A stretch of 8,116 nucleotides of DNA from a virus (Duplodnaviria > Heunggongvirae > Uroviricota > Caudoviricetes), in the IMG/VR virus record IMGVR_UViG_2622736468_000006, positions 1-8,116 of that record. One strand, written 5' to 3'. This document shows, piece by piece, positions 1-8,116 of this stretch; within the stretch, counting starts at the first letter, position 1, and every line of letters begins with the position of its first letter. The translations under genes and the position numbers were made by a program. Below the pieces are notes generated by a model. It did no database searches and had not been told where the DNA came from. It worked only from the letters and a program-made list of their open reading frames with translations.

Positions 1-42
1 AATGTAAGTATCATTTTTCATTGTTATATCTTTTGAATATTT

Positions 43-50
43 CTCGTTAG
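43..50. repeat. Left copy of 8-bp target site duplication CTCGTTAG flanking IS1
   Basis: CTCGTTAG at 43-50 directly abuts the IS1 end and is repeated exactly at 819-826 abutting the other end. IS1 is known to generate 8-9 bp duplications. Confidence 0.85.
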
Positions 51-65
51 GGTAATGACTCCAAC

Positions 66-569
66 TTATTGATAGTGTTTTATGTTCAGATAATGCCCGA
101 TGACCTTGTCATGCAGCTCCACCGATTTTGAGAACGACAGTGACTTCCGTCCCAGCCTTGCCAGATGTTGTCTCAGATTCAGATTATGTCGCTCAATGCG
201 CTGAGTGTAACGCTTGCTGATTACGTGCAGCTTTCCCTTCAGGCGGGATTCATACAGCGGCCAGCCATCCGTCATCCATATCACCACGTCAAAGGGTGAC
301 AGCAGGCTCATAAGACACCCCAGCGTCGCCATAGTGCGTTCACCGAATACGTGCGCAACAACCGTCTTCCGGAGCCTGTCATACGCGTAAAACAGCCAGC
401 GCTGGCGCGATTTAGCCCCGACATAGCCCCACTGTTCGTCCATTTCCGCGCAGACGATGACGTCACTGCCCGGCTGTATGCGCGAGGTTACCGACTGCGG
501 CCTGAGTTTTTTAAGTGACGTAAAATCGTGTTGAGGCCAACGCCCATAATGCGGGCTGTTGCCCGGCAT
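66..569 (-). CDS. insB: IS1 InsB frame, the catalytic part of InsAB' transposase reached by a -1 frameshift from insA
   Basis: The 167-aa translation matches canonical IS1 InsB and overlaps the insA 3' end in the -1 frame. Confidence 0.95.
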
Positions 570-763
570 CCAACGCCATTCATGGCCATATCAATGATTT
601 TCTGGTGCGTACCGGGTTGAGAAGCGGTGTAAGTGAACTGCAGTTGCCATGTTTTACGGCAGTGAGAGCAGAGATAGCGCTGATGTCCGGCGGTGCTTTT
701 GCCGTTACGCACCACCCCGTCAGTAGCTGAACAGGAGGGACAGCTGATAGAAACAGAAGCCAC
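488..763 (-). CDS. insA: IS1 InsA, the transposition inhibitor / DNA-binding N-terminal part of the InsAB' transposase
   Basis: The 91-aa translation ([32 protein letters not shown]...) is the canonical InsA with its zinc-finger-like CxxC...CxxC and HTH. The start codon is GTG on the minus strand. Confidence 0.95.
506..514 (-). other. IS1 programmed -1 ribosomal frameshift motif (A6C slippery run) in the insA/insB overlap
   Basis: Plus strand reads GTTTTTTAA, i.e. TTAAAAAAC on the coding strand, inside the insA-insB overlap. This is the known IS1 frameshift site. Confidence 0.85.
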
Positions 764-818
764 TGGAGCACCTCAAAAACACCATCATACACTAAATCAG
801 TAAGTTGGCAGCATCACC

Positions 819-826
819 CTCGTTAG
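819..826. repeat. Right copy of 8-bp target site duplication CTCGTTAG flanking IS1
   Basis: Exact repeat of 43-50 immediately outside the IS1 terminus. Confidence 0.85.
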
Positions 827-1066
827 CCCGCGCCCAATCTGGAATTACGGGCTTTCTACACCATCCATATGGTCATCACAGATCCATTAGCCGATCCACA
901 TAAAGTTTAAATTTACTATATTTATCATGATATTATCGACAACCCCACCCTCCCTCTAGATCCTTTTTACTGAAAAAAAGTGAAATCCCTTTCATTCATT
1001 TCAGTTTATATTCTCCGCAAAGCCGCCAGTACTGGCGCGGGCTGGCGATATGTTTTGAAGAAAAAT

Positions 1067-2239
1067 TTAACTGAAAAATTTTATCGATCCAGAAACCGCA
1101 GGCGGGTGCGGTGTAGTGCCGTTTTTGTCTGCGAAAGATTTATTTTGTCTGCATGTGGCTACCTCAGAGCGTCGCTGTGAATTTGATCTTATTGCGGTGT
1201 CGCAGTGGTTATCCTGCGGCGTACATCCATCCCATTGCGATACAAAGCCACCTTTGCTGTGTACTGCGTGGAAACGTGATGGCGCAGTGATGGTGTAAAA
1301 CTCACCGGCCAGCCCTTCTTCATTGGCCATATCTTCAAACCCTCGCATTCTTACCATTAGTTCACATCGACGGATCGCCGGATTTGCAACGCTGCGGTGC
1401 ACCATGCTGTCCAGTGCAATGCGCAGCCCCTCATCATTCAGCAGTTCAAACTTTTTAAAGAACTCCAGATTCCGCTTTTTCTGGTCTATCCATTCACCCA
1501 GTGTTTTGCGGGATACATAAGCGCTGGCCGCTTTTTGTACCTGTCCCACCGCGATGGCCATATGTTCGCGCTGTGTATCACGCGCACGTTTAAGACGCAG
1601 GTACCACCATTCCGGCGCCATCATGCGCAGTATCCCTGATTCCGCCTTACGCATTTCCAGTTGGCCTTCATTTGCTTCGTGTTCAACCCAGTACGGCGGC
1701 TGGTTATTCAGCATCAGGCAACACGCACAAAGATGGCGGTATGATTCCAGGGTGCGGCGGTGCAGCTCTCTGGCGTCGTCAGTGCCGGAATCAAACTGTT
1801 CGGTGAAGTCATAAAGTGACTGGGAAATCCAGCCAGATACCTGGTCAGCCAGTTTTTTAAGATCAGGACGGTCTAGTGACAGCAAGCGTTCCAGCGACTT
1901 ACCAAAAGGAAGATCAGCAGCGTCAGCGGCCAGCGAGTAACGCGCAGCCACTTTGCGCAGACGTGGCAATACACTCCCGCCGATAGTTTGGCGCAGGAAT
2001 GTATTGGCACGGCGACGCCCGTCACGACCAGCAAACAGCTTTTCGTAACGACGGCCAAAATACCCGGCTAACCAGTCGGGTATCTCATGAAGGTACTGTG
2101 AGCGCCATTCGTAATCCTGCGGGTTAACCGACCACAGGCGGCGCTCGGTGATCGTGGCGTCTGTAGGCGTACCCGGTGCGAACGTTTCACGCCGCCAGGT
2201 ATCGACGGAGTGATGTTGGCCATTGGCTACAGGAGTCAT
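1067..2239 (-). pseudogene. gpA-like rolling-circle replication initiator (P2/186 A family), N-terminal ~390 codons only; likely truncated
   Basis: ATG at 2239-2237 overlaps the dam stop as ATGA. The translation contains FYTITAPSRFHAVH, resembling rolling-circle initiator motifs 1 and 2, but no paired-tyrosine (Y..KY) catalytic motif. It ends at 1067, about half the length of characterised P2/186 A proteins (roughly 700-760 aa), and the DNA downstream (819-1066) has stops in every frame. Confidence 0.6.
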
Positions 2240-3096
2240 GCGCAAGCCATCGCTATAGAATCAAGCGGCGACTTCAGAATTAACTCTGCGGCAACTTTCT
2301 GGCTTGCAGCTGCGGCACCAACACTACGCGGGGCATTAATGCGAACGGCTTCAAATCCGGCGTACAGGTAATGCACCATTTCCAGATCGGCATTAGAGGC
2401 CACAACCGGTACACCTTTTCTGGCCAGACGGCGCAACTTACGCGCCAGCCTCCCCTGATCCATGTGCGAAAAACCGCGCTCATGGTAAGCGGTGAAATTG
2501 TCGCTTTCAGTCAGATAAGGCGGATCACAGTAAACAACGTCATTCCCGTCCCGAACCAAATCGAGCGTTTCTGAATAGTGGGCAGTAATGAACGTTGCGC
2601 GTTTTGCTTTTTCAGCAAAGGCGCGGATTTCATCAGCGGGGAAATAAGGCTTTTTGTACTTACCGAACGGGACGTTGAACTGGCCTCGACGGTTATACCG
2701 GCACAGACCATTGAAGCAGTGCCGGTTCAGGTACAGGAAACGCGCAGCAGCTTCTACAGATTCCGAACCAAAGGATTTACCTGACTGGTTGAAAGCATCC
2801 CGCACAGCATAATAGAAAACTGCGCGGCTTTCTTCATCACCTAACGAACCGGCAGTAAACAGACTTTCCAGCTCATTGAGCAGCGCATCAGTGTGATACG
2901 CCATCGCCTTATAAAGATTAACCAGATCAGGATTCACATCTGCGATCAGATACTCGTCATAATCTGTATTCATCATGACGGCGCAGGAACCTGCGAACGG
3001 TTCAACCAAGCGTTTACCTTCTGGAAGGTGCGGACGCAGCTTAGGCATAAGGCGGGCTTTGCTACCCACCCATTTAAGCGGAGTTTTAACGGCCAT
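2236..3096 (-). CDS. dam: DNA adenine methyltransferase, Dam family (orphan N6-adenine MTase, predicted GATC specificity)
   Basis: 286 aa from ATG 3096-3094, preceded by GGAGG five nt upstream. Motifs: EPFAGSCAV (SAM-binding motif I), LYLNR...NGLCRYN...[14 protein letters not shown], and the catalytic VYCDPPY (motif IV). Collinear with E. coli Dam over its whole length. Confidence 0.9.
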
Positions 3097-3415
3097 AATG
3101 ACCTCCGCCAACTAACGACTCTGTTACACCGTTTGAAATGATGTATTCCAGCACTTCAAGCGGTGACAGCGAACGGATAGATAAAACCACCCAATTTTCG
3201 GCATCAGCGATAATTTCATTCACCGGCAAAACATGGGTGATAACTGCCGCCCACTCTCGCCCGGTGTATTTCCCGTGCTTCCACTCGCACAATGAAAGAA
3301 CATCACCGGTTTTATACCCGCGATCATTTTTACGCAGCTCGGCCTTTTTCTGACCAGCCACCACAGCATTAAGGTATTTCGGCGCAATTTTTACCGCATG
3401 GATTTTGATTGTCAT
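3086..3415 (-). CDS. ASCH-domain protein (PUA-like fold, DUF3850-like), function unknown
   Basis: 109 aa from ATG 3415-3413, which overlaps the exonuclease stop as ATGA. Carries the ASCH signature GxKxxExR (AGQKKAELR) followed by NDRGYKTGD. The track start at 3466 is a TTG and was not used. Confidence 0.65.
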
Positions 3416-4008
3416 TTTGCACCGCCTTGCGCTAAAGCTTTGATGACACCTAATGTCATTTTGCAATCAGCTAAAGCACGGTGTGCCTTCCCCTCGATCA
3501 CAACTCCTTCATGCGCGGCGGCATCAACTAACTTATGCCATTTATAACCGTGATATTTCCCCGGCTCGCCACGATATTCTGCATATAGTTTCATTGCGCA
3601 AACAGAATGAGCAGCAAGCATCCATGGCGCACCTTCAGAAGGTCTTCCATTCAATGCGTAGGTCTGACGAATTAACCGGAGATCATAATCGGCGTTATAG
3701 ATAACAAAGCCAAAACGTCTAATAAGTTCTTCCACTGCGCCGCATATATCTGTCCACGCAGGAGCATAGGCAACCATTTCATTTGTGATCCCATGAATGG
3801 CAATTGCTTCATCAGGAATAGGCTTAGTAGGTTTAACAAGCGTGTTAAGCAGAATAAATCCATGGCTATCAATGATGCATATTTCTACTATTTCTGCATC
3901 ATCACCCAGCCCCGTGGTTTCGGTATCAATAAATAGGCGATCATCGTCAAGCCACTGTTGTGCTAACAGGCTGATAGAATACTGCAATTGCTTTGTATTC
4001 AATTCCAT
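3412..4008 (-). CDS. DnaQ-like 3'-5' exonuclease, DEDDh family
   Basis: 198 aa from ATG 4008-4006, with AGGAGG six nt upstream. Exo I motif FIDTETTGL, Exo [12 protein letters not shown], Exo III HRALADC. The track start at 4029 is a TTG and was not used. Confidence 0.85.
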
Positions 4009-4232
4009 GCTGCACCTCCTTTGCTGCAAATCGCCGCTGCTTCTTCGCGGATTAACTCAACGATTTCCGCTGCGCTTAAACCTTCATTGGCTGCATGAGT
4101 AGCCAGCTTATCCAGACGGGTGGAACACAGATCAGCAGTTGCGGCTTTACCTTCCTGCGTGGCTTTGGTGAGCATGGCCAGCAGGTCGGTGCCTGATTTT
4201 GTTGCGGGTAAATCCTGACGTGTCATGTGCAT
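3999..4232 (-). CDS. Hypothetical phage protein, 77 aa, Ala-rich
   Basis: ATG at 4232-4230 with GAGGA seven nt upstream. Its 3' end overlaps the exonuclease start by 10 nt. No recognisable motif. Confidence 0.5.
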   Translation of the reverse strand: MHMTRQDLPATKSGTDLLAMLTKATQEGKAATADLCSTRLDKLATHAANEGLSAAEIVELIREEAAAICSKGGAAWN

Positions 4233-4299
4233 TTTGGTTTCCTCAAGGCAAAAGAATCCCCGGCCACTTGAATCGTGGACAAAAAATTCAGGCAGTTAA

Positions 4300-4701
4300 T
4301 TAGTGAAAAGTGGGTTGTACTGTGGCGGCTGAGTAGTTCGGTGCCGGAATCAGGTGCAGCTCATAGGTTATCCGCCACCACTCCTGGATCAGCGCTTTTA
4401 TCTCGCCAACTCCCAACGCCCCGGCTGTATAGAAAATTGCACGAATCCCCGCCAGCGCTTCTATCTGGGCTTCTTTGCTTTTCGCTTCGCGATATACGCA
4501 GCACCAGAAAGCAGCATTGATCGCCAGCCAGTGACGCGGATTTGTCATGTGTTCAGTGTCGTTGAAGAAGAACGGATGCAAAGCGATACGCCCATTTTTA
4601 CTGGTGCTTTTCTCTGCAAACGCTAATGCGTAGTTATGCGGGACGCCCCACACAGCCAGCTCTGCCCCTAGTGATTTACCTTCAACCGAAATAATGGACA
4701 T
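4300..4701 (-). CDS. Hypothetical phage protein, 133 aa
   Basis: ATG at 4701-4699 overlaps the upstream stop as ATGA, with AGGGG eight nt upstream. The ORF fills the whole interval without internal stops. No family recognised from sequence alone. Confidence 0.55.
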   Translation of the reverse strand: MSIISVEGKSLGAELAVWGVPHNYALAFAEKSTSKNGRIALHPFFFNDTEHMTNPRHWLAINAAFWCCVYREAKSKEAQIEALAGIRAIFYTAGALGVGEIKALIQEWWRITYELHLIPAPNYSAATVQPTFH

Positions 4702-5129
4702 CAGTGATTCCCCTGTTGCTGTAACTTCTGGACAATATGAGGTGCAATCACCATCTGCACCCCGCTGCTGCTATAAATTGGATGAACCTTCTTGATTGGG
4801 CGGTTCGCGGTACGTTTCGAAAAATCGCTGTCACGTAAACTGCCGAAACCTTCAAACGTTAACCGCGCCCGTGAAATGCCCTGGCGCAGTTGAATCATGT
4901 CCCGATAGCCCAGGCGTTCATAAAGCTCACGCCAGCAGCACTTGCTTAAATGGGCTTTAAATGCCCCGGTACCAGAAGTAACCGCAGCAGCATGAAGTAC
5001 TACGCCGCGCCACTCCGGTGTCAAGTTGTCCCACCATTCAGCGGCCTCGCTGCTTTCGCTGAAGTATTTGCGGCGGATCTGTTTTAAATGCTCCAGCCCG
5101 CGCTTTTGCTGTTCCTGGCTAATCGCCAT
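4701..5129 (-). CDS. Hypothetical phage protein, 142 aa, basic
   Basis: ATG at 5129-5127, immediately preceded on the coding strand by a G9 homopolymer. The stop overlaps the next ATG. No family recognised. Confidence 0.55.
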   Translation of the reverse strand: MAISQEQQKRGLEHLKQIRRKYFSESSEAAEWWDNLTPEWRGVVLHAAAVTSGTGAFKAHLSKCCWRELYERLGYRDMIQLRQGISRARLTFEGFGSLRDSDFSKRTANRPIKKVHPIYSSSGVQMVIAPHIVQKLQQQGNH

Positions 5130-5133
5130 AGCG

Positions 5134-5142
5134 CCCCCCCCC
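5134..5142. repeat. Homopolymeric tract, C9 on the plus strand (G9 on the coding strand)
   Basis: Nine consecutive C at 5134-5142. On the minus strand this reads TAG-GGGGGGGG-CGCT-ATG, lying between the stop of the 57-aa ORF and the start of the 142-aa ORF. Confidence 0.9.
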
Positions 5143-5315
5143 TATAGCCCCATCAGACGACGCCACCACGGGCGACGCGGCTGCTGGCCATTGAATTTGT
5201 ACATGTGGCCAGGGTTCCAGCGCTGACCGTTCGGCAGTTCAATCCAGCCCGTTGAACCACTGGGCAATTGCATGGCCGGTGATTCGTTTTTCAGGTAAGT
5301 GACAAACGCTTTCAT
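5142..5315 (-). CDS. Small hypothetical protein, 57 aa, in the position occupied by fil-like genes in 186-type phages
   Basis: Not in the supplied track. ATG at 5315-5313 with GGGAGA upstream, directly after the cII stop. Translation: MKAFVTYLKNESPAMQLPSGSTGWIELPNGQRWNPGHMYKFNGQQPRRPWWRRLMGL. Stop is TAG at 5144-5142. Confidence 0.45.
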   Translation of the reverse strand: MKAFVTYLKNESPAMQLPSGSTGWIELPNGQRWNPGHMYKFNGQQPRRPWWRRLMGL

Positions 5316-5324
5316 GGTTCTCCC

Positions 5325-5828
5325 TCACATCAGGCCGGTGGCGTTGGTTGTGACCAGATCCACCGCAGCGGCCAAAACCGGCGCAGAGTGAATACGGCTT
5401 TCAACGGTATAAGCCAGCACGGATAAGCTACGGATTGCATCTCGGGCGCGATCCAGAATTTGAGTACGGCGGGCGGCGGTCATATGGCCAGCTGATACGG
5501 CTTCCCCAGCAATCGCGCCCACACTGGCTGTGGCGCTCAGTGCACACAGTTGTATGTTGCCTTCTGTTGCATTGTTCACCGGTACGGATGGAAGGCAGTT
5601 AATCTGCCCCAGCATCCCATCCAGTAAACGCGCATCTTCGGTGTAATCCGTGATAGCCAAAAGTTCATCACAGGTCAGGCGGTGCGGTTGCGCTGGGTTC
5701 AGTTTATTACGCAGGATCTGCGGCCTCATACCAACGGCAGCGGCCACATCTTCAAGATTGTGCTCAATTGCAAATGCTCGGCAAGCCGCATCAAAGTGCG
5801 CATGTTTAGAGGTCTGGTAATCAAACAT
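5325..5828 (-). CDS. cII: Phage regulatory protein CII (186 CII / CP76 family), lysogeny-establishment activator
   Basis: 167 aa from ATG 5828-5826, with GGGAGAGG upstream. The N-terminus (MFDYQTSKHAHFDAACRAFA...ILRNKLNPAQPH) matches my recollection of the 186 CII family. It is the second gene of the lytic operon, after the cox/apl-like gene. Confidence 0.75.
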   Translation of the reverse strand: MFDYQTSKHAHFDAACRAFAIEHNLEDVAAAVGMRPQILRNKLNPAQPHRLTCDELLAITDYTEDARLLDGMLGQINCLPSVPVNNATEGNIQLCALSATASVGAIAGEAVSAGHMTAARRTQILDRARDAIRSLSVLAYTVESRIHSAPVLAAAVDLVTTNATGLM

Positions 5829-5858
5829 TGTTTGCCTCTCCCTAATCCGTAGGATGGA

Positions 5859-6080
5859 TTACGCGTTAAGCGAAATGTCACATTCGCTTAAAGCCTGAAT
5901 AGTGAGCGCGGCCATGTTGACTTCGACCAGGCCTTTCTTCTGCTTACCCTTCGGCTTAATAGGTAATTTCCCGTATTCGATCAGGTTCCTGGCGGTTTCT
6001 TTGTTGGTACCAGTACGGCGGCAATACTCGTCTAAAGGCAGGTATGGCTCTGGGATGATGATTGTAATGTTCGGACGCAT
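5859..6080 (-). CDS. Cox/Apl-type small HTH protein (excisionase and switch regulator)
   Basis: 73 aa from ATG 6080-6078, with GGAG eight nt upstream. It is the first gene of the minus-strand operon, divergent from the repressor gene. The segment IPEPYLPLDEYCRRTGTNKETARNLIEYGKLP resembles the Cox/Apl N-terminal HTH. The track's longer version starts at a GTG at 6140. Confidence 0.6.
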   Translation of the reverse strand: MRPNITIIIPEPYLPLDEYCRRTGTNKETARNLIEYGKLPIKPKGKQKKGLVEVNMAALTIQALSECDISLNA

Positions 6081-6199
6081 GAGGCAAACTCCATAAGTTA
6101 ACCTGTACGGCAATACAGGGCTGTAACTGTCAATATTCACTTAAACCTACAAAGCGGAGTTTAAACTCACTTTGCGCAAGATTTCAAGGTAAAACTTTC
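6081..6199. promoter_or_regulatory. Lysis-lysogeny switch region between the cox/apl-like and cI-like genes; expected to hold the lytic and lysogenic promoters and their operators
   Basis: 119-bp intergenic region between divergent start codons. Contains a CTGT-N8-ACAG motif, a TTGACA hexamer on the minus strand (6133-6128), a 10-bp direct repeat and a 12-bp palindrome. Exact promoter hexamers could not be assigned with confidence. Confidence 0.6.
6103..6118. promoter_or_regulatory. Candidate LexA (SOS) box, or repressor operator: CTGTACGGCAATACAG
   Basis: Fits the LexA core CTGT-N8-ACAG with dyad-symmetric CTGTA/TACAG arms; located 23 bp upstream of the cox/apl-like start. Resembles the E. 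coli sulA box (CTGTACATCCATACAG) except in the central four positions. Confidence 0.35.
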
Positions 6200-6778
6200 G
6201 TGAACCTACAAATTGAGTTTTCTCATGGCGGAGCTGAGGTACTAGATAGAGTTATCCAAGCGTATGGATTCAACACAAAACTAGCCCTAGCCGAACATCT
6301 TGATATAGCAAGCAGCAGTCTGGCTAACCGGTATAAGAGGGATTTTTTTCCAGCTGATATCGTTGTTAGATGTATGGCTGAAACAGGAGCTACTCTGGAA
6401 TGGCTTGCGACTGGACAAGGTAGAAAGTTTAACGATGACGAATTAGACATCATGAAATTGCCACGCAAGAAGATTGTGGACGGAAAACTCTATGAGTCTG
6501 GTTTCCTAATGCTCGATAAGGTTACTTTTTTACCTGGCAAACCTTTACCGCAGAATCCTATCTGTGTGATTGATAACACAATGCAATACATTGTTGATCA
6601 ACACTTTACTGAAGTTTATGACGATGTTTGGCTTGTCGAAGTTGAAGGTAAAACCAGCGTTAGAACACTAACACGCATCCCTGTGGGAAAAGTTAGAGTA
6701 AGCGGCGTAGGTATGGCTTTTGACTGCGGTATTGACGATATAAAAATCATCGGCCGCATTGTTCTGACGATTGAATGA
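6200..6778 (+). CDS. cI: Immunity repressor, 186 CI-like (N-terminal HTH, no LexA-type peptidase domain evident)
   Basis: 192 aa from GTG 6200, the only in-frame start upstream of the HTH segment KLALAEHLDIASSSLANRYKRD. Sits directly upstream of int with its stop 1 nt before the int ATG, and divergent from the lytic operon. Length and arrangement match 186 CI. Confidence 0.75.
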   Translation: MNLQIEFSHGGAEVLDRVIQAYGFNTKLALAEHLDIASSSLANRYKRDFFPADIVVRCMAETGATLEWLATGQGRKFNDDELDIMKLPRKKIVDGKLYESGFLMLDKVTFLPGKPLPQNPICVIDNTMQYIVDQHFTEVYDDVWLVEVEGKTSVRTLTRIPVGKVRVSGVGMAFDCGIDDIKIIGRIVLTIE

Positions 6779-6779
6779 A

Positions 6780-7820
6780 ATGAGTGTTCGTAAACTTCCG
6801 ACAGGCGAATGGATCGCCGACTTCTACACCGTCAACCGTAGTAATGGTAAGAACGGGAAGCGCATACGTAAAAAATTTGCCACGAAGGGGGAAGCCCTGG
6901 CATTTGAGAACCATACGCTTCAGAAAGTAGACAATGCGCCCTGGCTGGGTGAAGGGAAGGACAAACGAACTTTAATAGACCTGATCACAATGTGGTATGA
7001 ACGCCACGGAGTAGCTTTGCGCAATGGTCAAAAGCGTAAAGACGCTATGACCTGGGCGGCAGAGTGCATGGGATTCCCGCTAGCTACAGAGTTTAATGCC
7101 CAGCTGTTCACGGCCTACCGCGCAAAAAGGCTTGATGGGCATTATGCCCGCACTAGCAGAGTATCCAAGGTTTCCCCGAAAACAATGAACCTTGAACATG
7201 CTTACTTCCTGGCTATGTTCAACGAGCTGAAACGAATCGGGGAATGGTCAGCCCCCAACCCACTGGAAAACGTCAGACAGTATCGTACTGATGAAACCGA
7301 AATGGCTTTCCTCACTGCTGAAGAAATTGAGCGGCTTTTGCTGGAATGCAAACGAAGCAAAGTAAAATACTTGGAGCTAGTCGTAAAAATCTGTCTTGCG
7401 ACCGGCGCAAGATGGAATGAAGCGGCAACGCTGAAAAGCTCTCAGATCGCAGGCGATAAAGTTACGTTCGTTAAAACCAAAGGGAAGCGCAACAGAACAA
7501 TCCCCCTTGATGATGAACTTCTATCCGAATTGCCTGAAACGAAAGGCGCTCTGTTCCCCAAACCCTGCTATAACGCGTTCCGCTCTGCTTTGGAACGCGC
7601 AGGCATTGAACTCCCCTCCGGCCAGCTTACCCATGTACTGCGCCATACATTTGCCAGCCACTTTATGATGAACGGCGGGAACATTCTGGTTCTGCAAAAA
7701 ATTCTCGGCCACGCTGACATCACTATGACAATGCGTTATGCCCATTTCGCCCCAAGCCACCTTGAAGATGCCGTGCGACTTAACCCCTTAAAATGTCGCA
7801 AAAATGTCGCGATAGCTTAG
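6780..7820 (+). CDS. int: Tyrosine recombinase / integrase, P2 Int family
   Basis: 346 aa from ATG 6780 (the track begins at TTG 6771). C-terminal catalytic signature present: LATGARWNEAA, HVLRHTFASH, LQKILGH, MRYAHFAP (catalytic Tyr). The N-terminus (MSVRKLPTGEW...GKRIRKKF) is collinear with P2 Int. Confidence 0.95.
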   Translation: MSVRKLPTGEWIADFYTVNRSNGKNGKRIRKKFATKGEALAFENHTLQKVDNAPWLGEGKDKRTLIDLITMWYERHGVALRNGQKRKDAMTWAAECMGFPLATEFNAQLFTAYRAKRLDGHYARTSRVSKVSPKTMNLEHAYFLAMFNELKRIGEWSAPNPLENVRQYRTDETEMAFLTAEEIERLLLECKRSKVKYLELVVKICLATGARWNEAATLKSSQIAGDKVTFVKTKGKRNRTIPLDDELLSELPETKGALFPKPCYNAFRSALERAGIELPSGQLTHVLRHTFASHFMMNGGNILVLQKILGHADITMTMRYAHFAPSHLEDAVRLNPLKCRKNVAIA

Positions 7821-7854
7821 AAATACTGCCGAATACTCACAGATATTAACTAAC

Positions 7855-7884
7855 GTAACTTATTGATAACACTGTAACTTATTG
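7855..7884 (+). repeat. Two 11-bp direct repeats GTAACTTATTG (7855-7865 and 7874-7884) in the attP-like region downstream of int
   Basis: Exact 11-bp direct repeats 19 bp apart, 35 bp after the int stop. An AATACT pair also occurs at 7822-7827 and 7832-7837. Consistent with arm-type Int or IHF sites. Confidence 0.4.
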
Positions 7885-7907
7885 TTTTTCGTAGATAGTT
7901 GATGCTT

Positions 7908-7929
7908 TATAATATAGCCTGTGCTATAT
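7908..7929 (+). promoter_or_regulatory. Candidate promoter -10 element (TATAAT, 7908-7913) overlapping a perfect inverted repeat ATATAGC-N4-GCTATAT (7912-7929)
   Basis: Perfect consensus -10 hexamer about 75 bp upstream of the small ORF at 7988, with only a weak -35. A 7-bp-arm perfect inverted repeat overlaps it. Confidence 0.3.
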
Positions 7930-7987
7930 CTGTATGTAATGCAATCATCCCTCAAGGATCGACGGGATTAGCAAGTCAGGAGGTCTT

Positions 7988-8116
7988 ATGAATGAGTTCA
8001 AGAGGTGTATGCGCGTGTTTAGTCATTCTCCCTTTAAAGTACGGTTAATGCTGCTCTCTATGTTGTGCGATATGGTCAACAACAAACCGCAGCAAGATAA
8101 ACCTTCCGATAAATAG
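7988..8116 (+). CDS. Small hypothetical protein, 42 aa (MNEFKRCMRVFSHSPFKVRLMLLSMLCDMVNNKPQQDKPSDK)
   Basis: ATG at 7988 preceded by AGGAGG (7978-7983, 4-nt spacer). Ends with TAG exactly at the window end. Not in the supplied track because it is under the length cutoff. Confidence 0.4.
   Translation: MNEFKRCMRVFSHSPFKVRLMLLSMLCDMVNNKPQQDKPSDK

Follow-up and report, generated by a model that had tools for sequence, protein, structure and literature searches.

An 8,116-nucleotide stretch of viral DNA (IMG/VR record IMGVR_UViG_2622736468_000006, positions 1 to 8,116; called the window below, at its full length) covers the immunity region of a defective E. coli prophage, together with its early lytic operon. 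The prophage belongs to the P2 family and resembles phages 186 and ESSI2_ev040 (Quadragintavirus; ev040 below). Ahead of gene A, which codes for the rolling-circle initiator, the operon carries three overlapping genes. These encode a predicted 3'-5' exonuclease (exo), a 109-amino-acid DUF3850 protein and a Dam-like DNA adenine methylase (dam). A preliminary description of the window took the overlaps as the mark of a dedicated three-gene unit. This is not supported, since the same overlaps join any genes in the segment. Rather, the three genes probably are a run of independently exchangeable cassettes, placed before A in a coupled layout general to the operon, and their proteins most likely act on their own. 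The features on which this argument turns are as follows.

3999-4232, minus strand: DUF2732 gene, homologous to P2 orf80 and 186 CP81 (Pfam DUF2732, 3e-12); the conserved upstream anchor of the cassette slot
3412-4008, minus strand: exo, encoding a predicted 198-amino-acid DEDDh 3'-5' exonuclease (Pfam RNase_T)
3086-3415, minus strand: gene for the 109-amino-acid DUF3850 protein (Pfam DUF3850 and ASCH)
2236-3096, minus strand: dam, encoding a 286-amino-acid orphan D12-class N6-adenine DNA methyltransferase, Dam-like and probably specific for GATC (Pfam MethyltransfD12)
1206-2239, minus strand: 5' part of gene A, about 345 codons, truncated (Pfam Phage_GPA; blastn against ev040)
3999-4008, minus strand: overlap of exo and DUF2732, 10 nucleotides (from sequence)
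3412-3415, minus strand: overlap of exo stop and DUF3850 start, ATGA, 4 nucleotides (from sequence)
3086-3096, minus strand: overlap of DUF3850 3' end and dam start, 11 nucleotides (from sequence; GGAGG at 3106-3102)
2236-2239, minus strand: overlap of dam stop and gene A start, ATGA, 4 nucleotides (from sequence)

All five genes are read from the minus strand, and four consecutive overlaps, of 10, 4, 11 and 4 nucleotides, connect DUF2732 to A. The exo stop codon (TGA, 3414-3412) sits over the DUF3850 start (ATG, 3415-3413; TCAT on the plus strand at 3412-3415). The TAA stop of the DUF3850 gene occupies 3088-3086, and the ATG of dam 3096-3094. Similarly, the dam stop (TGA, 2238-2236) lies over the ATG of gene A (2239-2237). 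A Shine-Dalgarno sequence, GGAGG, is found inside the upstream gene ahead of both the exo and dam starts, and gene starts match the RefSeq annotation of ev040. The three overlaps from exo to A were correctly placed in the preliminary description and are real. It missed that the coupled run begins one gene earlier, at DUF2732, and that gene A is just a fragment. A possible internal promoter at the exo/DUF3850 junction (3415-3387) was rejected; it was one of two hits, where 5.6 are expected by chance.

Overlapping junctions are the rule in this segment. Across ev040, P2, 186 and Wphi, all 19 annotated junctions from DUF2732 to A (and on to orf91) overlap, by 1, 4, 10 or 11 nucleotides. Because overlaps join whichever genes fill this part of the operon, the coupling of exo, DUF3850 and dam is not special. 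Furthermore, the junction that follows DUF2732, GCAGCAAAGGNGGTGCNGCATGG, is identical whether the next gene is exo (the window), dam (loci L002 and L003) or DUF3850 (L016, L024 and L045). Elsewhere, an unrelated 196-amino-acid gene, with no convincing Pfam match, fills the place of exo (L082:4414-5004; also L026, L044 and L089). Like exo, the protein begins MEL... and ends ...GGAK. For this reason, cassette exchange seems to run through junction sequences that are conserved.

The slot draws on many genes. Across 155 loci, it holds 61 protein families, among them zf-dskA_traR (a DksA/TraR zinc finger), DUF5405, PAPS_reduct, a C5 methylase and a small membrane protein. In two loci (L095:5297-7170 and L096:5297-7458), a C5 cytosine methylase-like or PAPS-reductase-like gene lies between dam and A; on this basis, the slot gathers several genes of DNA-modification type. 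Alleles, defined at 85% identity, also reassort. On a single dam allele and a single A allele, exo alleles E0, E1 and E2 occur with two or three DUF3850 alleles (D0/D1), in nearly all combinations. DUF3850 accompanies one and the same dam allele in 25 cases and is missing beside it in 50.

To count the three genes together and apart, we used a census of 289 usable P2-family loci, sampled through gene A and so unbiased for exo, DUF3850 and dam. Four gene-A samples went into it, three of them drawn by likeness (to ev040, P2 and 186) and one made up of a single genome per species. Genes in the slot were called with hidden Markov models (HMMs), and the DUF3850 scan used two sub-alignments. The patterns were as follows.

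None of the three genes: 147 loci
dam only: 71 loci
DUF3850 only: 39 loci
DUF3850 and dam: 12 loci
exo only: 9 loci, 186 included
exo and DUF3850: 6 loci
All three genes: 5 loci
exo and dam: 0 loci

Thus, seven of the eight possible combinations are present. DUF3850 and dam are not associated in the census (17 loci with both, 45 with DUF3850 and no dam, 71 with dam and no DUF3850; odds ratio (OR) 0.83, p = 0.64), nor after dereplication (OR 1.7 and 2.1, not significant). The same is true of exo and dam (OR 0.75, p = 0.8; dereplicated 0.62 and 0.51, not significant). The preliminary description had said that independent, unlinked occurrence of the ASCH-type gene and dam would refute its unit, and this is what the census returned. 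Note that an earlier pooled table, including loci fetched by DUF3850, gave an OR of 5-7 for DUF3850 and dam. It was discarded, and replaced by the gene-A census, because the loci had been picked by a one-subfamily motif and because pairs plainly driven by lineage, namely dam with either the small membrane protein or the zinc finger, came out just as 'significant'. One open reading frame (ORF) that had been grouped with DUF3850, in L169, was rejected as a single-linkage artefact caused by a shared out-of-frame leader. The DUF3850 match in L106 spans just 32 residues and is doubtful.

These observations suggest how the segment may work. The stretch between DUF2732 and A behaves as a cassette slot, which in different relatives holds none, one or several non-essential genes. 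Its pool includes Dam-type and C5 methylases, PAPS-reductase-like proteins, the DksA/TraR zinc finger, DUF5405, DEDDh exonucleases, DUF3850, small membrane proteins and proteins with no assigned role. Cassettes appear to be swapped exactly at start codons. Overlapping stop and start codons, with a Shine-Dalgarno sequence in the preceding gene, are the general layout of the operon, and may serve to keep ribosomes engaged into A. The last point comes from the GenBank record of 186, according to which translation of A appears to need translation to the end of the upstream orf, and which locates a terminator within the 5' end of that gene. Each protein most likely acts alone. Dam would methylate GATC on fast-replicating phage DNA, and so may shield it from GATC-specific restriction and from the effects of under-methylation. 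The exo product would be a DnaQ/ExoX-type 3'-5' nuclease, and DUF3850 a small, basic protein of ASCH fold, with some nucleic acid or nucleotide as the molecule that it binds or processes.

Several points weigh against a run of unconnected cassettes. One is that exo and DUF3850 are positively associated (OR 5.2, p = 7e-4; dereplicated 11, p = 0.0014, and 17, p = 0.017), and are the only pair with statistical support. Where the two occur together, they are always adjacent, with a 4-nucleotide ATGA overlap, in either order. This is so in three lineages (ev040-like, 186-like and L296-type), and 186-like phages with exo and DUF3850, and no dam, exist. The proteins have complementary isoelectric points, 5.46 for exo and 9.07 for DUF3850. 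Conceivably, then, exo and DUF3850 make a two-gene unit, in which the small, basic ASCH-fold partner binds substrate for, or stabilises, the acidic DEDDh exonuclease, much as DnaQ-type proofreaders have small subunits, with Dam a mere neighbour. We regard this as possible but rather unlikely. Both genes also occur alone, exo in 9 loci and DUF3850 in 39, and the reassortment of E0, E1 and E2 with D0 and D1 concerns precisely this pair. Outside the P2 family, just one of 181 non-redundant immediate DUF3850 neighbours is a 3'-5' exonuclease. The association may also result from co-transfer of adjacent cassettes, and the dereplicated samples are small. In a bolder form, the two proteins would be a nucleic-acid-processing unit of P2-family phages, used in rolling-circle replication or against host defence, with the invariant, enzyme-like H/K/K/E/R/D/R/D set of the minimal ASCH barrel giving substrate recognition or a second catalytic step; this is similarly doubtful. 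A weaker variant has DUF3850 reading Dam methylation. Hence, of the functional unit proposed in the preliminary description, the three-gene form fails in the census and a modest link between exo and DUF3850 is what survives.

In the full three-gene proposal, exo, the ASCH-like protein and Dam would form a single unit whose substrate is methylated or nicked DNA, and the ASCH-like domain would read the N6-methyladenine (m6A) that the neighbouring Dam makes. DUF3850 and dam are indeed adjacent, or split only by exo or A, in at least five gene orders, which include DUF3850-dam-A, dam-DUF3850-A, DUF3850-exo-dam-A and dam-A-DUF3850. The lineages concerned have proteins 40-55% identical to those of the window. 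All three genes recur, in the order DUF3850-exo-dam, in a second, distant P2-family lineage (44-54% identity). Here (L296:9593-12733, L319:3417-5313 and L326), an N-terminally extended DUF3850 gene is followed by exo, dam, a C5 methylase gene in L296, and A; exo overlaps DUF3850 on one side and dam on the other, by 4 nucleotides each. Iyer, Zhang and Aravind (2016) described repeated fusions and operons of ASCH domains with adenine methylases, and for this reason proposed that ASCH domains are m6A readers (PMC4738411). YTH domains, which are PUA-like relatives, bind m6A, and the DUF3850 model has weak fold similarity to them (Foldseek E 0.07-0.2, TM about 0.4). A non-P2 contig from IMG/VR (L097:123-2005) encodes a 364-amino-acid protein with a C-terminal DUF3850 domain and, 300 nucleotides on, an ORF that corresponds to a D12 methylase in its N-terminal half; the arrangement fits published ParB/ASCH/Dam loci. 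Taken with the varied gene orders and PMC4738411, DUF3850 and dam may have a facultative functional link.

Nevertheless, a three-gene unit is very unlikely. Beyond the missing association, the partner is absent from 45 of 62 DUF3850-bearing and 71 of 88 dam-bearing P2-family loci. No D12 methylase lies within 7 kb in 56 of 59 P2-type DUF3850 loci, exo and DUF3850 manage without dam in 186-like phages, and alleles reassort freely. DUF3850 is also common in genomes of Listeria and Enterococcus phages and mycobacteriophages that have no D12 methylase nearby. Among 160 IMG/VR loci fetched by DUF3850, just 18 have a D12 methylase within 10 kb, and all 12 close ones are P2-family. Outside this family, the 181 neighbours include three or four methylases, none of them D12. 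Finally, the m6A-reader idea for ASCH was still without experimental support in 2024 (PMC11037411).

A further reading makes DUF3850 an accessory factor of the initiator A, with the nicked origin or displaced single strands as possible targets, and the adjacency to dam incidental. Wherever a P2-family phage has DUF3850, A lies 0-3 genes away. DUF3850 immediately follows A, and overlaps it by ATGA, in P2, Wphi and 26 of 71 P2-like loci; in L118, L167, L148, L270, L285 and L302 it immediately precedes A. In other phages it is found in replication/recombination (nin-like) regions, beside SSB, DnaB, NinB or YopX. Even so, the slot is so short that closeness to A is nearly unavoidable, 227 of the 289 loci have no DUF3850, and T7-like phages carry DUF3850 between tail-tube genes. 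We consider this reading highly improbable.

Two other matters count against the cassette reading in its present form. No equivalents of the 186 terminators or RNA structures tR1 (gap 4233-4299) and tM1 (5' end of A) were detectable in the window. A terminator consensus scan performed at chance (7 found, 5.7 expected), and fold z-scores were +0.8 and -0.1. Hence, the argument from polarity is borrowed from 186. Secondly, the literature reports no biochemical function for any DUF3850 protein. Its sole substantive treatment is a preprint on ParB-CTPase-DUF3850 fusions (bioRxiv 10.1101/2025.10.10.680097). Weighing all of this, we still favour independent cassettes.

The gene identities given in the preliminary description (exonuclease, ASCH, Dam) are right. 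The exo product matches Pfam RNase_T (PF00929; 1e-18, 68.9 bits against a cut-off of 24) over profile positions 1-162 of 164. All three Exo motifs (DxE, NxxxD and Hx4D) are present, as DTETTG, YNADYD and HRALAD. The protein belongs to PHROG 192, 'DNA polymerase exonuclease subunit' (1.8e-55), and matches the PADLOC DEDDh model (7.6e-31). Its best solved relatives are ExoX (4fzx, 1.4e-8) and the epsilon subunit of Pol III (3e-5), and the CP83 protein of phage 186 is an orthologue, 73% identical. From these matches, exo is predicted to encode a DEDDh (DnaQ/ExoX-like) 3'-5' exonuclease.

The 109-amino-acid protein fits DUF3850 best; this family belongs to the ASCH/PUA-like superfamily, so the ASCH assignment is borne out. 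Pfam DUF3850 (PF12961) matches at 1.3e-22 (80.2 bits, cut-off 22.9) over all 77 profile positions, and Pfam ASCH at 5.2e-5 (24.3 bits, cut-off 21.2). The protein is in PHROG 986 (1.9e-38). An AlphaFold2 (AF2) model, with a predicted local distance difference test (pLDDT) score of 85.5, has the shape of a minimal ASCH/PUA-like beta-barrel, with a C-terminal helix and a disordered tail. The best Foldseek match is 3iuw (E 9e-9; template modelling (TM) score 0.93 target-normalised, 0.68 query-normalised). YqfB, PH0355 and ZmASCH come next and, like 3iuw, have a probability of 1.00. The motif GxKxxExR, found in the cavity of ASCH proteins, is a hallmark of the superfamily (defined in PMC6803910). 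In the window protein it is present as G21-Q-K23-K-A-E26-L-R28. Across 14 distant phage homologues, H6, K9, K23, E26, R28, D31, R32 and D38 are invariant; the alignment covers Listeria, Enterococcus, Klebsiella, T7-like, T1-like, Vibrio, Sphingomonas, mycobacterial and P2 phages. Judged by this conservation, the eight charged residues look like a putative active or ligand site. We also considered whether DUF3850 could be an N4-acetylcytidine (ac4C) amidohydrolase of the YqfB type. In YqfB, the catalytic triad is Thr24-Lys21-Glu74 and Arg26 provides the oxyanion hole (PMC6972931). The candidate was rejected because the nucleophile, Thr24, is replaced by Glu26 in the phmmer alignment, where Lys and Arg are kept (the match is weak overall, E 0.7). 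A protein homologue search returned close single-domain enterobacterial relatives only, and was uninformative on fusions.

DUF3850 is found in 511 of 50,697 phage records. Apart from P2-family operons and the tail-tube genes already mentioned, its settings are a group of small early genes in T1-like phages and, in Listeria, Enterococcus, Klebsiella and Sphingomonas phages and mycobacteriophages, replication or nin-like regions. The commoner immediate neighbours outside the P2 family are NinB, Ead/Ea22, YopX, NinX and SSB.

The dam product matches Pfam MethyltransfD12 (PF02086) at 1.4e-66 (225.2 bits, cut-off 22) over profile positions 1-251 of 253, and E. coli Dam (2g1p) at 5e-61 over residues 7-273, where roughly one aligned residue in two is identical as judged by eye. 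The AdoMet-binding FxGxG and catalytic DPPY motifs (EPFAGSCAV and VVYCDPPYL) align with those of E. coli Dam. In the latter, we take K9, Y119, N120, L122, R124 and P134 to be the GATC contacts; all are identical in the window protein except Y119, which is F. The specificity is thus probably GATC. GATC sites themselves are neither depleted nor enriched (window, 32 observed and 31.6 expected; module, 10 and 6.8). As stated in the preliminary description, dam is an orphan. No restriction-endonuclease gene of a type II restriction-modification system lies next to it, the flanks being DUF3850 and gene A, and PADLOC ranks its 'orphan methyltransferase' model first (3.8e-93), with one for type II methylases close behind (4.1e-90). 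Note that exo and dam match generic PADLOC models only, with no complete known anti-phage defence system; DUF3850, DUF2732, orf133 and orf142 have no PADLOC match. Among 5,426 complete E. coli genomes, 28 have the window dam allele family and 3 the full-length exo and DUF3850 segment. Dam methylase function in a 186-related prophage with retron Ec67 was reported in 1990 (Hsu et al., as cited in PMC7826664). In a P2-like Vibrio phage (10N.286.54.F9_PE001; L187:2495-2947), a DUF3850-bearing protein is labelled as similar to 'ORFd in retron Ec67'; the label hints that the Ec67 prophage, sequenced in 1990, may have a DUF3850 gene as well as its Dam.

The rest of the window has the content and order of a P2/186-type early region. 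The ORF map and Pfam give int, cI, apl, cII, fil, two genes with no assigned role, DUF2732, exo, DUF3850, dam and A. The cI-int genes diverge from apl/cox-cII...DUF2732...A, which share one strand, and Pfam Fil, DUF2732 and GPA matches are all present. The order int-cI-apl-cII-fil...DUF2732...A agrees with the 186 record. The two unassigned genes, orf133 and orf142 (4300-5129), share 1 nucleotide at 4701, farther upstream in the operon. They belong to PHROGs 3935 and 33841, have no Pfam match and, unlike exo and DUF3850, are kept in 80 of 80 close relatives.

That the module feeds into the replication gene was also part of the preliminary description. The overlap of dam with the start of A stands; the gene that is fed is truncated and inactive. 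Pfam Phage_GPA matches at 4.8e-54, and of its 321 profile positions only 2-216 are covered. The homology with full-length A breaks off at 1205/1206, around codon 345 of 673, and the frame continues through unrelated DNA to a stop at 1067. The invariant block EPHHDGTPHWH (alignment positions 373-383 of A) lies past the break and is absent from the window, which thus has no functional initiator A with an HUH-type motif. Two further features adjoin the break.

819-1205, no strand assigned: DNA joined to the gene A breakpoint; 958-1205 matches DNA that intact relatives have on the opposite side of this prophage, at a distance of about 22 kb
1-818, minus strand: IS1 (InsB ORF 66-569, InsA ORF 488-763; terminal inverted repeat 796-818), from its ORFs and from the sequence ...atcagtaagttggcagcatcacc ending at 818

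In NZ_OZ547246.1, window positions 958-1210 match 1836478-1836730, and 1206-8116 match 1858762-1865669. Since 958-1205 matches DNA some 22 kb off in intact prophages, we conclude that a deletion of about 22 kb, adjoining IS1, removed the 3' half of A and all of the late genes. The segment 819-957 is matched in full in strain LH13-b only. Presumably, the element at 1-818 is IS1, as judged from its proteins and inverted repeats. Because the window is a deletion remnant with a cut gene A, the module no longer feeds a working replication gene. It is a fossil in a decayed prophage.

The arrangement itself is ordinary, and already annotated in a RefSeq phage at 99% identity. Dam in 186-type prophages has been known since 1990 and the idea of a link between ASCH and adenine methylases was published in 2016, so there is little novelty in it. 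The value of the locus is as a clean example of cassette exchange, apparently exactly at start codons, in an operon that is probably translationally coupled. DUF3850 is a useful lead, as it is present in about 1% of sequenced phage genomes and eight charged residues of its 77-amino-acid domain are invariant. With exo, it makes a concrete and cheap pair for biochemistry, although a modest one.

How does the window compare with known systems? Among ASCH proteins of known activity are YqfB (an ac4C amidohydrolase), ZmASCH (a single-stranded RNA ribonuclease) and the ASCH domain of TRIP4 (DNA binding). These share the beta-barrel fold and the GxKxxExR cavity motif with the window DUF3850 protein. 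So does 3iuw, a structural-genomics protein of an E. faecalis prophage. Unlike any of this set, the window domain has just 77 amino acids, and H6, K9, D31, R32 and D38 are specific to DUF3850. As in the loci of PMC4738411 and the ParB-CTPase-DUF3850 fusions, an ASCH-type domain is beside a Dam-type methylase in a phage. Conversely, the window DUF3850 stands alone, unfused, and its adjacency to dam is without statistical support in the P2 family. The window dam shares the D12 class and the FxGxG and DPPY motifs with E. coli Dam but, unlike the latter, is prophage-borne and part of a lytic operon.

The nearest phages are ESSI2_ev040 and ev015 (Peduoviridae, Quadragintavirus), in which gp28-gp32 correspond to the module, with 99.1% nucleotide identity over 2236-4008. 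The order DUF2732-exo-DUF3850-dam-A and all overlaps are identical in ev040. The annotations there are DNA polymerase exonuclease subunit, RNA-binding protein, DNA methyltransferase and 'nicking at origin of replication'. While ev040 has a full-length A (673 amino acids) and late genes, the window has the truncated A and the deletion. By blastn, identity to ev040 begins exactly at 1206, and is 98% over 1206-5139 and 89% over 5189-5828. No blastn match to ev040 was found for 5829-8116, containing apl, cI and int. Hence, exchange of the immunity and integration module sets the window apart from the closest sequenced phage.

In P2, Orf91 is a 109-amino-acid DUF3850/ASCH protein (Pfam 1.1e-16 and 1.8e-10), 46% identical to that of the window. 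Its gene has the ATGA overlap with A but, in P2 and Wphi, is downstream of A rather than upstream as in the window. P2 has neither dam nor the exonuclease; Wphi has DUF3850 without dam, and a C5 methylase about 600 nucleotides further on. Phage 186 (CP81-CP84, orf84 and A) follows the same plan as the window, with DUF2732 first, then non-essential genes with overlaps of 1 or 4 nucleotides, then A, which is entered by a stop/start overlap like that between dam and A in the window. The exo orthologue, CP83, is marked 'not essential' in 186. In place of the DUF3850 and dam of the window, both absent from 186, that phage carries genes for a DksA-type zinc finger, DUF5405 and a PAPS-reductase-like protein.

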